DNA from: Eledone cirrhosa
Taxonomy: Eukaryota
Length of the DNA stretch: 64,000 bases
NCBI GenBank assembly: GCA_964016885.1
Contig: OZ024746.1
Location: 31,558,001 to 31,622,000, forward strand
Reading direction: 5' to 3'
Below are positions 8,021 through 61,536 of this stretch, piece by piece (position 1 is the first letter of the stretch; every line of letters begins with the position of its first letter). The notes beneath the pieces are model-generated. The model was given only the letters and a program-made list of their open reading frames with translations. It was not told the origin of the DNA and did not search any database. Made by a program: the position numbers and the translations under genes.

Positions 8021-8130
8021 CTAATGGATATTTAAGTTTATTCCCTGTTCAATGAATTCCAGTTGTATTCGATCATCCATTCTTTCACTTTGAGCTACTG
8101 TCATCCATTCCTTCCATGTAGAAACCTTTC
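8021..8130 (-). CDS. Sulfotransferase gene A exon 5
   Basis: Poly-T/CAG acceptor; GKVSTWKEWMTVAQSERMDDRIQLEFIEQGINLNIH then TAG. Confidence 0.88.
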
Positions 8131-8889
8131 CTGAAAAAAAAAAGATTTAGACAAATTGTCAGAGTTGCATATTTTCTACCCAGGGTTAGACTACGAGCAA
8201 GATGGTTAGATAACATCCATGAACTCAGTTGGTTTCACTTGAGGATCCATCCAGATCATTTAGAGTATTTGAGGACTCTTCCCCCATGATCCTAATAGGA
8301 ATAAGTGGGCAAAGAAGAAGACAGAAGAAAGAAAAAAAAAAATAGAAAGAAAACAAGAAAAAAAGAAAAAGAAAGAAAGAAGAGGAAGAAGTAGTAGTGT
8401 TGTCAGTTGGAATGGAACCATCATCATAACTGATTCCTCTTTGATTTCCATGTTGGTATGGGTTGGGCAGGTTGTATAAGTCACAATCTGACACTAGACT
8501 AATCACATGTCTCCATCTTGCTCATACTTTCCATTCTGGATGCCCTTCATAACACCAACCACTCTACAGACTGTACTGGGTGTAATTTATTGTGACACTA
8601 CCACTTTACAGAGTGTACTGGGTATATTTTATTGTGGCACTACCACTTTACAGAGTGTACTGGGTATATTTTATCATGGCACAAGCACTACCACTCTACT
8701 GAGTGTACTGGGTGTATTTTATCATGGCACAAGTACTACTACTTTACAGAGTGTATTGGGTACATTTTATCATGGCACCAGCACTACCACTTTACAGAGT
8801 GTACTGGGTGTATTTTATCATGGCACCAGCACTACTACTTTACAGAGTGTACATTTATGAAGACAATTGAATGTTGGGTTCATAATTAC

Positions 8890-9067
8890 CGGCACGAAAA
8901 AATCCACTGGTATTTTTGAATTCTATTTTGAAGACGTCAGATTTGCTTGAAGGTTTTTCCTTTTTCATTCTGTCAAATGTACACATGTCTGCTATATCTT
9001 GGATCAGTTGATGGTTGATGTCCTTGCCAAGAAATGTGGCAATTGATGATACAACTTTAACAAGGTC
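8890..9067 (-). CDS. Sulfotransferase gene A exon 4
   Basis: DLVKVVSSIATFLGK...CTFDRMK...GFFRAG; CAG/GTAAT borders; 178 bp. Confidence 0.9.
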
Positions 9068-9516
9068 CTGCACAGAAGACAATACAGATATAAAAGGAAA
9101 AGAGAGGAGCTAGTTGTCTGTTGTGTCAATAATCTGACTCTATAGATATACAGTGACATAAAGAAAAGTGGGGACAATATAACATGTCTAGCTTATCACA
9201 CTACACTTCTTAAGATAAACCGCTGCAAGTTAAATGGCTCAGTGTTGGTTTCAACTAGGCATGGTAAGGTATATCTGAAACACTGGGTGAAATACTGGTG
9301 TTGGTATCAAATCAAGCACTCTATGCACAGGCAGAGTGTATATATAATAGAAAAAAAACGAGGAAGTTTCATTTACATATGAAAAATATTTATTGTGTAT
9401 CGACCTTTTACGTGCGTTTCGCAGAGGATATATATATATATATATATATATATATATATATATATATAATGAAATAACAGGAGGCTGGACTGGTGTAAAT
9501 CCTTGAAAGGTTTATT

Positions 9517-9574
9517 ATACTATGATCATTTCAATGACCGGGTTCCATATGAATCCGGTGATATCATCAGGTAT
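9517..9574 (-). ncRNA. Minimal type I hammerhead ribozyme motif (intron 3 of gene A, sense)
   Basis: Minus strand: atac CTGATGA [long stem II, accggattc...gaacccggt] GAAA TGATCA TA gtat. Helix III is palindromic. Confidence 0.7.
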
Positions 9575-9765
9575 TGGAATATAACAAAGGAATATGTAAA
9601 AAGCCATGGGTCCGAAAAACCATGGGTCCGAGAACCAGAGACAGAGAGGGCGGCTGACCAACTAATATATATATAACTAGGAATGATGCAACAATCTAAA
9701 ACAAGAGAATAATAACACTGGGCAATTGTCAGAATTAGGAAATAAAGTAATTATGTAACAGTTAC

Positions 9766-9863
9766 CTTTGAAGCTTCTTCATATGTTATTAGAAGAACAT
9801 TTGGGTTATCTTTGATAAATGGCCACCACTGTTTTGTATATTCAAAATAATCACCACTAGGGA
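9766..9863 (-). CDS. Sulfotransferase gene A exon 3
   Basis: VPSGDYFEYTKQWWPFIKDNPNVLLITYEEASK; CAG/GTAAC borders; 98 bp. Confidence 0.9.
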
Positions 9864-10926
9864 CTGTAATGAAGGGGGAAATAAATTAAATATAAACAAA
9901 AACAGAAAGATTTCTCACAATTATTGTTTACATATCAGTACTGTCTGTGAAGGTGGGTGGTTTAGTAATTAGACTGTTGACCCTAAAGTTATTAGTTCAA
10001 TTCCTAGACCAGGTGACACATTGTGTTCTTGAGCAAGACATTTTATTTCATATTGCTCTAGCCCAATATGTTGTGATGATACAAGTGCCAAGCTGTATAA
10101 GTCTTTGGTTTAGATAATATTAGTAACATATTGAGACGTGTATATGAGCAACTGATGGTCTTCCACAAAACACCTTGTCCAGGTTTGTACGTTGGAGAGG
10201 AACTTTCCGGGTACAAATCCATGGTCAGTCATGATTGAATATGTGTGTGTGTGGGTGTGGGGGGTGGGGTGGGTGGGAGGGTCTATAAAGTGGTACTGTC
10301 TTATCTTTGTGAAATTAAGTTATTGTATATACCTATTCTTGATTGTGTGTATCTGGTTTACAATAGGACACAGTATTTCTGCATGTTGTGAGAAGCAACT
10401 AAAAGTGTTAGTGTCAGGAATGGCATCTGGCTGTAAAACATTGCCTCAAAAATTCCAGTCCAACCCATGCCAGCATGAAAAAGTTTACATAAAAGTGATG
10501 TTGATGATGTACTGTTTTATAAATGTTAAGAAAGAACCCGATTGTCAAATTAGACCAAGGAACCAATGTTTCAATTTGTCTTTTTATTTCTGATACTATC
10601 TGTTAGTCACAACTGCTGGCAGAAGTCGTTACTTTTCCTGTAATAAGAGGCAGGATTTGAACACAGAATGCATAGAACTATCACATATATCATATAGCAT
10701 CGACTCTGATGCTTTAACAATTTTGCCAATTCACTGCCCCTTGACTGGTACTTAATTTATTGACTCCGAAAGGAGGAAAGGCAATGTTGACATGAGCGTG
10801 ATTTGAAACTAGAGTACAAAGAACTGGAAAAAAATAGTGATATATATAATCCAACATTGTAACCACACAATCAATTCCTAATAAATGAAACACATGTGGA
10901 GCGTGTTACAGTTAAACCAAACTTAC

Positions 10927-59118: not shown

Positions 59119-59436
59119 TTTTTCCTTCCATAAACATTTCAAAGAAGCTTGGATAATTTCCTTTGTATTTAAATTCCTTAAAACACTGAATATGCCTGTA
59201 GAAAGACACTGCTAGGGCTTTAGGATTACGCGTAAGATAGATAATTTTGTGATCTTTTAGTAAATCTGGGGGAATGAAGTCAGGCTTAAGGTGAGTATTT
59301 AACAAACGTGGTGACTCAGCTGAATCAAAGTCATCTATAGAAGTCATTTCCAGTAGCAAACCTTCTTTGTGTCGTGGTATTCTTTCAGCCTTTTCATTTA
59401 GTATCATATTAGCTATTTCAAATGTCCAGTGAGATC
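59119..59436 (-). CDS. Sulfotransferase gene B exon 2
   Basis: GSHWTFEI...SPRLLNTHLKP...RNPKALAVSFYRH...FEMFMEGK; CAG/GTAAGT; 318 bp. Confidence 0.93.
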
Positions 59437-60534
59437 CTGAAATATGGTATATTAATAGAATATAAAATAACAGTACTGTATATATGTGAAACAAAGAAAA
59501 TATCGTTTTATGAAGTATTGAGTGAATATTAATTTTGAAAGTATGTTAGTTTTTTTTCTAAGCTGCTACAACGCAGGCTTAACAATAAAATAGTTGAAGA
59601 TGCGTGCGCGCTCGCTCACACACACACACACACACACACACACACACACACACACACACACACACACACACACACACACACACACACACACACACACACA
59701 CACACACACAGCTTTTTTTACAAAATTAGGTAGTAACATGTGCTTATACCGTTTTAGACTAAATAAAATTAGTCTGTTAGTTGGGATTAAAAACCCCCTC
59801 TGAATGGAAAAAAGATGAGTGTTGACATAGATGGGAAACGAACCCACATCTTTGGTTTGCTGAACCAATGTGTAATGATAACAAAGGGATAAAATGACTT
59901 AAATATCATATATCGAGAATATATATATATTTCTCTCGTTTGTTTTCTATCCCTTTGAATTGAAATTTAGTACAATACAGATTATAAATAGTTGTATCGG
60001 ATAAAATCTCTCTTAATGCCGTGCGTGCGCGCCTGACTGGCTTTGCTCCCTCAGGTCAGTCTGCCTTCTTCCCCCTTCCCCCTTGTATTTCGGCCTGTTT
60101 AGCCCCCCCCCCCCCCGCTATGAAGGTAATAAACTATATACATGACATCCCAGATCACTGACCACTCCCCGTGAAAGACAGAAAAAACAACAAACTTTTA
60201 AGATTTTTTGCTTAGATTTTTTTGCTTTATTTGGCTGCATGCCCATATATGAACTGTACTCCTTGATAAGTTCACCTAGATTCCCGCCGTTCTAATACTG
60301 ATATCTTAATTCGGATCTAGCTGTCGAAACGGCCGGAGCTCAGCTTTTCATATATATGTAGTATTGAAATGTGGTAGTTCCAGAATAAAAGGCGCTCAGA
60401 CCACTCTGTAAAATGGTGATGCTGGTGCCACAATGAAATGTACCCAGGCCAATCTGTAAAGTGGTAGTATTGGTGCCACGATAAAATACATCCAATCCAC
60501 ATTATAAAATGGTAGTGGAGGTGCCACGAAAAGA

Positions 60535-60680
60535 GCATTTAGTATGTAGAGGCCAACTAAATCACTAATCACCACAGAATTGTTCTCACCCATACTGAAT
60601 CGAAGTGGGTATTGGCTTTCTTGTTAATCCATAAAGATCCATCATTGTGCATCAAAGTTTTCACAAAAAGCCACGTTATT
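60535..60680 (-). mobile_element. Penelope RT fragment
   Basis: LWINKKANTHFD/MGENNSVVISDLVGLYILN, homologous to [30 protein letters not shown] of the 27771 element. Confidence 0.65.
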
Positions 60681-61071
60681 TTTACCGTTTTGCATGCACT
60701 CGTCCAGTGTCCGAGCATTGCTGATTTGTGGAGTTTTGTCGAACAGCTGTTGTAACGTTTAGGATGGCTATCGATCCACTCCATCGTGAAGATCGTCCCG
60801 CCGCCTTCCTTTGTTCGGAAAGAGTAGGCAGTTTTCCTCTGTCTGATGGACTCACTAGAATGACTGACCACGTTCCTCCTCGGCGAAACCCTCGTCGTGA
60901 ATTGGCCTACTTTGAGCATGCGCCTGTAGGCTGAAGAGTACAGAAAGAAGAGAGGAGCTCCCATGGTGTTCATGGTGTTGAGTGTTGTTTAGGATCTGTA
61001 GGGTTTAGAATCTGTGAGGTTCCTAAGTCTTTGAACTCAGAACACAAATAGCCGGAAAAAGTTATTAAGAT

Positions 61072-61297
61072 AATAATTATTTCTATTTTTGGTACAATGC
61101 CAGCAATTTGAAAGGAAGGGGAAAATCGATTACGTCAATCTCAGTGCATTACTGGTACATTAATTTATGGACCCTGTAAAGATTAAATGCAATGATAACC
61201 TCGTTAGGATTTGGATTCAGAACGTAAAGAGCCGTGTCTATATGCCGCAAAGCATGATGTTTGACGCGCTACCGATTCTGCCAATTCGCCGCCCTCA
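61072..61297 (-). mobile_element. tRNA-derived SINE just inside intron 1 of gene B
   Basis: Minus strand ggcggcgaattggcagaatcggtag head, family central domain, tail ctggcattgtaccaaaaatagaaa(att)n. Confidence 0.75.
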
Positions 61298-61331
61298 CCA
61301 GCATTTAATAATAATGATAATAATGATTTAC

Positions 61332-61536
61332 CTGCATTTGGATAAGAATACAGTAGAACATCATCGGGTCTGATTTTGACAGTATTTACTATGAGAGCAG
61401 CTTTCATCATTGGTACTACATAATGAATACATAGGTCCTTGTAGATGTAAACATCAAAGGGACAACCATCACGGTCGTAATACACGCTGTGGTACTTTTC
61501 ATATTCAGCTTTCATCTTTTTGTAATCCACGGCCAT
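61332..61536 (-). CDS. Sulfotransferase gene B coding exon 1
   Basis: MAVDYKK...YDRDG...IRPDDVLLYSYPNAG; phase-1 GTAAAT donor. Confidence 0.88.

Follow-up and report, generated by a model that had tools for sequence, protein, structure and literature searches.

Genes A and B and their products

The stretch of DNA considered here, hereafter the window, comprises 64,000 nucleotides of the AT-rich, 3.0-Gb genome of Eledone cirrhosa (GenBank assembly GCA_964016885.1, contig OZ024746.1, positions 31,558,001 to 31,622,000, forward strand). It contains two genes, A and B, related to the cytosolic sulfotransferases (SULTs), in which the lysine of the 5'-phosphosulfate-binding (5'-PSB) loop is replaced. 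Few residues of sulfotransferases are as constant as this lysine. The two genes belong to a real, selected and expanded octopod clade that is defined by the loss of this catalytic residue.

Both genes lie on the minus strand and have five exons each, with B located upstream of A at a spacing of 33.6 kb. The stop codon of A ends at position 8021, and the ATG of B begins at position 61536. The coding exons are as follows.

15355..15553, minus strand: gene A exon 1, from the ATG to the 5'-PSB loop; Thr65 (codon ACC) replaces the catalytic Lys; joined to exon 2 in the contig of public run X1
10927..11244, minus strand: gene A exon 2, 318 nt; Trp70, His115, Arg136, Ser140 for Asp, Ser144 and the clade-gained Arg147
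9766..9863, minus strand: gene A exon 3, 98 nt
8890..9067, minus strand: gene A exon 4, 178 nt, encoding the lid; Arg263 is retained and Lys is replaced by Ala264
8021..8130, minus strand: gene A exon 5, coding part; Gly/Asp replaced by Ser268/Thr269; KxxxTVxxxE dimer motif intact; stop
61332..61536, minus strand: gene B exon 1; Asn67 (codon AAT) replaces the catalytic Lys
59119..59436, minus strand: gene B exon 2, 318 nt; Thr replaced by Ser70 and Asp by Ala142; Trp72, His117, Arg138, Ser146 and Arg149
54528..54625, minus strand: gene B exon 3, 98 nt
53440..53617, minus strand: gene B exon 4, 178 nt; His265 for Arg257, Ser266 for Lys258
49127..49233, minus strand: gene B exon 5, coding part; Gly/Asp replaced by Asp270/Thr271; dimer motif intact; stop

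The open frames encode 300 (A) and 301 (B) amino acids without stops or frameshifts, the introns are GT-AG in eight of eight cases, and the internal exons measure 318, 98 and 178 nt in both genes. The intact frames, canonical splicing and equal internal exons described in the first-pass annotation of this DNA are thus borne out, and the two proteins, estimated there to be about half identical, share 45.8% identity over 299 aligned positions.

Every motif change that the same annotation listed is present. The 5'-PSB loop reads YPTSGTHW in A and YPNAGSHW in B, and the counterparts of RNPKD are RNPKS and RNPKA, respectively. The C-terminal RKGxxGDWK loop, which reads RAGKVSTWK in A and HSGKVDTWK in B, is not intact: A retains R, G, W and K without K258, G262 and D263, and B additionally lacks R257 (sites are numbered as in SULT1A, via P0204). 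The His, Arg and Ser equivalents are indeed retained, as H115, R136 and S144 in A and as H117, R138 and S146 in B, and the KxxxTVxxxE dimerisation motif is present in both proteins.

Comparison with the Pfam domain Sulfotransfer_1 (PF00685), which had been proposed as a check, places the full-length orthologs P0001 and P0012 far above the cut-off of 22, at 164-188 bits, while exon 2 of A and exon 2 of B score 61 bits each. For structure, the Octopus sinensis proteins P0001 (80% identical to A) and P0012 (B-type; 52% identical to B) were used as modelled stand-ins. Their AlphaFold2 models have predicted local distance difference test (pLDDT) scores of 94.9 and 90.8, respectively, and match human SULT1 structures with template modelling (TM) scores of ~0.8; retinol dehydratase appears among the structural matches at ranks 42 and 50, with 18-21% identity. 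Judged by sequence and by these predicted folds, A and B are cytosolic SULT homologues.

The second intron of gene B contains a 48-bp minisatellite (window 54686-58547; ~80 copies, 95% matches), which yields stop-free frames of 1177 and 1305 codons, one per strand. Shorter arrays related to it occur in or near gene A (8558-8852, 6304-6436 and 4355-4518).

An octopod clade without the loop lysine

A HMMER search of 1.84 billion representatives returned 6687 relatives, and residues were counted in the best 150. In the column of the loop Lys, the 147 further representatives among these have K in 124 cases, R in 11, a gap in nine and another residue in three. Two of the three come from Argonauta and the third from O. 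bimaculoides, and no non-octopod protein without K or R at the loop occurs among the 138 aligned representatives. The ESM Atlas gave only generic sulfotransferase clusters.

An alignment was then made of 150 full-length proteins (15 gene models of this genome and 135 database proteins), with fragments and fused models left out. Thirty-eight of them lack Lys or Arg at position 48, and the 112 outgroup sequences all have it (105 K, 7 R); such substitutions are not common in other invertebrate SULTs. The tortoise model P0216, which lies outside this alignment, has a gap at the loop Lys position. The Lys-less sequences comprise 11 from this genome, 24 named Octopus or Argonauta proteins, and three without a species label.

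All 38 Lys-less sequences form one clade, with a support of 0.90 in a FastTree tree of all columns. When the 27 motif columns are removed, the support is 98 in IQ-TREE with 54 rows and 97/99 with 31 rows. A lineage-specific clade had been suspected and a tree suggested in the first-pass annotation; the Lys-less proteins prove monophyletic with masked motif columns (support 97-98), and all named members are octopods. Lys is present in the firefly squid protein P0038, which clusters with the four Lys-bearing genes of this genome, and no squid, cuttlefish or Nautilus member of the clade is named among the best 150 of the 6687 matches.

Lys-less orthologs persist in Octopus and Argonauta. The closest named relatives of A among the matches listed are from O. 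sinensis (80.0%) and Argonauta (71.2%). Gene B has a long branch (0.51-0.56) and no close ortholog among the matches listed, the best of which is 51.8% identical. The protein P0009, encoded on a 1143-nt contig, is Lys-less, keeps Asp134 and Lys258, and is 49% identical to A; its ortholog was not found in this genome, and its source may be a lineage outside the named octopods.

Whole-genome searches with PF00685 and five proteins gave a stable list of SULT loci, which is a lower bound. The intact Lys-less genes modelled number 11 (four on contig C6, five on C4, one on C5 and one on C23), and the intact Lys-bearing genes four, all on C3; the Lys-less genes thus make up 11 of the 15 intact models. 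The four Lys-bearing genes (C3:145.60-145.71 Mb) are recent tandem copies, 91-99% identical to one another, and the Lys-bearing genes have the same intron positions as the Lys-less ones. In a divergent SULT at C23:16018410-16028090 (L082, L083), the 5'-PSB loop carries Arg and the exons follow another plan. In addition, at least 11 loci (L002-L012) have the long exons of membrane sulfotransferases, which we take from their motif to be of the heparan-sulfate type; the loop Lys is kept in the three that were inspected (L005, L009 and L011).

A and B were described at first as a tandem pair. The pair, with its 33.6-kb spacing, is half of a four-gene cluster, the other members of which start just to the right of the window.

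Extended window 68434-73572, contig C6 (L031-L033), plus strand: gene C, start codon at 68434
Extended window 81586-87683, contig C6 (L031-L033), plus strand: gene D, start codon at 81586

Both genes, which encode 298 (C) and 299 (D) amino acids, are intact, Lys-less and of the B-type described below, and have the same exon plan as A and B. They are arranged head-to-head with B, the start codons of B and C being ~6.9 kb apart. An inverted duplication of ~1.5 kb with 96% identity (extended positions ~87600-89100 vs 96400-97900; L033, L034) lies to the right of the window; through it, the 3' portion of gene D's last exon is present in a second copy.

Between the genes, the window has TA microsatellite tracts of ~0.9-2 kb (25915-27099, 37757-38692 and 41155-43183), and a 25-bp tandem repeat lies near its right end (63628-63998). 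Open stretches on the minus strand (45367-44279, 21661-20987 and 454-2) resemble retroelement fragments, putatively Penelope-like and long interspersed nuclear element (LINE) reverse-transcriptase-like.

Cofactor site, selection and expression

Two lysines (positions 48 and 106 in SULT1A numbering) hold the sulfate in human SULT1E1. Lys47 of that enzyme holds the sulfate and aids the departure of 3'-phosphoadenosine 5'-phosphate (PAP) after His107 has deprotonated the acceptor, and Ser137 restrains Lys47 until this deprotonation, as described in the accessible part of the source (PMC3866684).

Lys48 is absent in 38 of the 38 clade members. Seven residue types (T, G, A, S, Y, C and N) occupy the site across the clade, and the 11 genes of this genome have codons for T, G, A, N, S and Y there; therefore the side chain at this position is unconstrained and is not a new catalytic group. 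None of the 38 has Lys at position 106, which is Asn in 77 of the 112 outgroup sequences. The clade has no Lys or Arg at either of the sulfate-holding positions.

The remainder of the site is changed in part. Gly50, Trp53, His108, Arg130, Phe229, Met232, Gly259 and Trp264 are kept in all 38 sequences, as are Ser or Thr at 138 and Tyr or Phe at 193. The dimer motif is also conserved (T269, V270 and E274 in 38/38; K265 in 37/38). Replacements affect Asp134 (30/38), Lys258 (32/38), Gly262/Asp263 (33/38) and Arg257 (18/38); position 258 is substituted, not deleted, and the length of the loop is kept. As read from this alignment, the cofactor site is selectively changed, not generally eroded. Of the eroded site for PAPS (3'-phosphoadenosine 5'-phosphosulfate, which supplies the sulfate) claimed in the first-pass annotation, the loss of Lys stands, while most contacts to the adenine and the 3'-phosphate are retained. 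The His that follows the loop Thr is ordinary, being present in 94 of the 112 outgroup sequences.

The clade members fall into four grades. In the founder type (five sequences) only Lys48 is lost. In the second grade (three sequences) Gly262/Asp263 is changed besides Lys48. In the A-type (12 sequences) Asp134 and Lys258 are additionally replaced, and the B-type (18 sequences) has Ser51, His257 and Asp262 too (T51S, R257H and G262D, 18/18). The founder type is represented here by a single-copy gene at C5:32925094-32967612 (L068-L070, L073, L074, L091), which has a first intron of ~37 kb and is 84-88% identical to its Argonauta and Octopus orthologs (88.2% to O. sinensis). The four grades suggest a stepwise history. 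The order of the steps is not claimed, because the branching loses its resolution under masking of the motif columns: a stepwise order of motif loss is seen in the full-column tree and is not recovered with the 27 columns removed, and by approximately unbiased (AU) tests it is neither rejected nor demonstrated (p 0.365 and 0.22).

Two other positions are noteworthy. Arg or Lys is found at 141 in all 33 non-founder members and in only one of the 112 outgroup sequences, and Arg141 co-occurs with the loss of Lys258 in 32 of 33. At position 77, close to the acceptor pocket, every clade member has Lys, as do 79 of the 112 outgroup sequences.

These substitutions raise the question of decay, i.e., whether the genes are duplicates on their way to becoming pseudogenes. 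The loss of catalytic and cofactor residues and the long branch of B would fit such a course, but all 11 modelled Lys-less genes have open frames and GT-AG introns. Moreover, the proportion of differing synonymous sites (pS) between A and B is 0.80, i.e., saturated, compared with 0.32 for nonsynonymous sites (pN). The ratio of nonsynonymous to synonymous substitution rates (dN/dS) is not given for A vs B, C and D because of this saturation. It is 0.20-0.26, at high dS, for the pairs among B, C and D, and 0.28-0.39 for seven less saturated Lys-less paralog pairs (pS ≤ 0.50), compared with 0.14-0.35 for six Lys-bearing pairs (Nei-Gojobori in both sets). The purifying selection proposed at first is upheld by these values (0.20-0.39 between Lys-less paralogs) and by the 80% identity of A to its O. 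sinensis ortholog. The persistence of orthologs in Octopus and Argonauta and the splicing of A (see below) also speak against decay, as does the fact that the broken SULT copies seen in this genome are Lys-bearing ones: a frameshifted copy lies at C3:159.88 Mb and an intronless broken copy at C5:17.42 Mb. Of a further Lys-bearing gene, at C3:337.89 Mb, only three exons were found in 30 kb; like the four intact tandem copies, these three are related to a firefly squid protein. The decay reading is largely refuted, and we give it very little credence.

With respect to expression, a 1918-nt contig of the public run X1 has A spliced at the four predicted introns, its exons without a differing letter. 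The exon joints of A are absent from runs X2-X4, which cover the introns; the four runs come from one study, and their records do not state their kind. No RNA-labelled run is listed as containing exon 2 of A. Exons 3-5 of B have no cover in run X1, which weighs neither way on the expression of B. The clade members P0183 (B-type) and P0229 are encoded at full length on contigs of ~1.0-1.2 kb, which are most likely spliced transcripts.

Two ways in which Lys might be restored were considered and rejected. Adenosine-to-inosine (A-to-I) editing cannot restore it, because none of the codons at position 48 (ACC, AAT, GCA, GGA, ACT, ACA, TAC and TCG) becomes a Lys codon by A-to-G changes; the X1 contig has no letter that differs within the exons of A. 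As for an alternative Lys-bearing first exon, tblastn with 19 first-exon queries over 264 kb returned the four known first exons and weak matches to second exons, and three chance matches to the loop motif, 33-67 kb from any gene, have no first-exon homology.

Possible functions and comparison with known systems

It seems somewhat probable that A and B are SULT-derived pseudoenzymes, which would bind a PAP/PAPS-type nucleotide together with a small acceptor-like ligand and carry out no efficient sulfate transfer. A is an intact, selected and expressed homologue without the catalytic residue, the features by which a pseudoenzyme is recognised; expression was seen for A only. Between a pseudoenzyme and a new function, sequence cannot discriminate.

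Without Lys48 the PAP leaving group would be unassisted, and therefore a very low turnover would be expected. The founder-type and A-type proteins probably still hold the nucleotide through the adenine sandwich and the 3'-phosphate clamp, because these contacts are kept. The B-type would be further along, with the nucleotide probably bound more weakly or differently because Arg257 is also lost. Phenolic, amine or steroid-like molecules, or sulfates of these, would be bound or buffered by means of the retained His and the acceptor pockets, which are diverging, and the dimer motif may let members of the family act on active SULTs. The four intact Lys-bearing genes could be available for ordinary sulfonation.

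Several points weigh against this reading. It leans on the general background that mutation of the loop lysine removes most or all activity (none to ~1/300 left). The catalytic His is invariant (38/38), and the Arg or Lys gained at 141 in all non-founders could be a replacement cation; Lys77 is invariant as well. The wiring of the active site differs from that of the human yardstick enzymes, because Lys106 is already missing from the majority of non-vertebrate relatives (N in 77/112). An 11-gene expansion with diverging pockets is also typical of active detoxifying families, and inactivity of the SULT4A1 kind would imply, by analogy, that conserved His, Arg and Ser need not mean nucleotide binding. 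Finally, the geometry of the pocket is read from alignments only, and binding and activity are predicted.

Some of these points would suit slow or rewired PAPS-dependent sulfotransferases in which Arg141, Lys77, a cationic substrate or a metal replaces Lys48, an alternative that we regard as unlikely but deserving of serious attention. It draws on the retention of His108, Arg130, Ser/Thr138 and Trp53 throughout the clade, on the location of Arg/Lys141 one helical turn from Ser138, on dN/dS values resembling those of the Lys-bearing paralogs, and on the predominance of Lys-less genes among the intact models. Arg141, however, is not needed for the loss of Lys48, because the founder type lost Lys48 without having Arg141, and this type is nevertheless the most conserved (88% to O. 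sinensis). Arg141 accompanies the loss of Lys258, and a charge swap near the 3'-phosphate would be a better explanation of it. The B-type lacks Arg257 as well, and a loop without K or R was met in no non-octopod among the aligned representatives. The SULT1E1 counterpart by alignment, Tyr140, does not figure among the residues listed as contacting cofactor or substrate in the part of PMC3866684 available.

A different possibility is that the fold has been repurposed for chemistry by the His and the nucleotide or anion site without Lys48, acting on sulfate esters, by elimination, or with a cofactor that, like coenzyme A (CoA), has a 3'-phosphoadenosine moiety. CoA binds SULT cofactor sites. The invariant His would be expected in this case, and the founder subgroup, slowly evolving and single-copy, lost Lys only and kept the other cofactor motifs; the coordinated B-type switches look selected, not decayed. 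On the other hand, no new invariant catalytic residue has appeared at position 48, and the best structural matches are ordinary SULT1 proteins, with retinol dehydratase far lower. We consider this possibility improbable. A broader proposal, which we likewise hold to be rather improbable though slightly less so, is that octopods turned most of their cytosolic SULT genes into a family that holds a 3'-phosphoadenosine nucleotide undischarged and has its His-lined pocket repurposed, either for chemistry on sulfate esters or with another cofactor, or for PAP/PAPS-gated sensing or storage of amines and steroids; the A-type and B-type would then be two selected specialisations. Overall, the interpretation given in the first-pass annotation is partly supported, with the change of the site sharpened to the loss of Lys.

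The significance of the clade lies in the fact that one animal lineage keeps an expanded, selected SULT family without the loop Lys. The graded series (Lys only; Lys and loop; Lys and Arg257) makes the question of function directly testable, and the founder gene is the cleanest test case. If sulfuryl transfer without Lys were true, the mechanism would need revision. The databases name proteins of the clade 'estrogen sulfotransferase-like' or 'sulfotransferase 1C2/1E1'. Contrary to these names, they should not be filed as 1A, 1C or 1E enzymes, because two defining features, the loop Lys and an intact C-terminal loop, fail; they are likely binding proteins, not the ordinary detoxifying enzymes that the databases call them.

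Full-text literature searches, with subscription papers and supplements beyond their scope, returned no description of Lys-less octopod SULTs. The accessible parts of cephalopod, scallop, ostracod and general SULT papers do not mention the loss of Lys (10.1101/340984, PMC13669787, PMC8976471, PMC13652810, PMC13603450, 10.1101/2023.04.12.536614, PMC8001535, PMC5106787, PMC3733922). A study of the octopus optic gland reads, in the part available, a 'Sulfotransferase 1C2' transcript as a steroid-conjugating enzyme; the gene is not identifiable (10.1101/340984).

Among known systems, A and B share with the SULT1-like proteins (human SULT1A1, 1B1, 1C2 and 1E1, and molluscan SULTs) the fold, His108, Arg130, Ser138, Trp53 and the dimer motif. 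They differ from active SULTs in having no Lys or Arg at 48, a changed C-terminal loop, and the gained Arg or Lys at 141 (33/38 of the clade). Insect retinol dehydratase has the SULT fold and an unusual net reaction, and is a distant match only. It keeps the loop Lys and uses PAPS.

To our knowledge, SULT4A1 is the only well-known inactive cytosolic member of the family; it ranks low among the sequence matches in the PDB. According to the accessible parts of the sources, it binds catecholamines and does not bind PAP, having Leu in place of Trp53 and a shortened loop (PMC1847840), and it is reported to regulate SULT1A1/3 through dimer contacts (PMC12529757). It resembles the clade in its conserved SULT fold, in a dimer motif that has stayed intact and in the defect of its cofactor site. 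The comparison drawn in the first-pass annotation therefore holds as an analogy only, because SULT4A1 lost the Trp (PMC1847840, as far as available) that the clade keeps (38/38), while the clade keeps the loop length and loses the loop Lys. Furthermore, SULT4A1 is one gene, whereas the octopod clade is an expanded family.

The closest evolutionary parallel is found in the same animals. Cephalopod S-crystallin is derived from glutathione S-transferase (GST), is expanded, and has kept cofactor binding while almost losing activity, according to the accessible part of PMC4976375. It has an unrelated fold, and lens expression is known for S-crystallin, but like the clade it is an enzyme-derived expansion. 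If the clade proteins are pseudoenzymes, they would constitute a large natural family and the second cephalopod case, after S-crystallin, of an enzyme turned into a binding protein.

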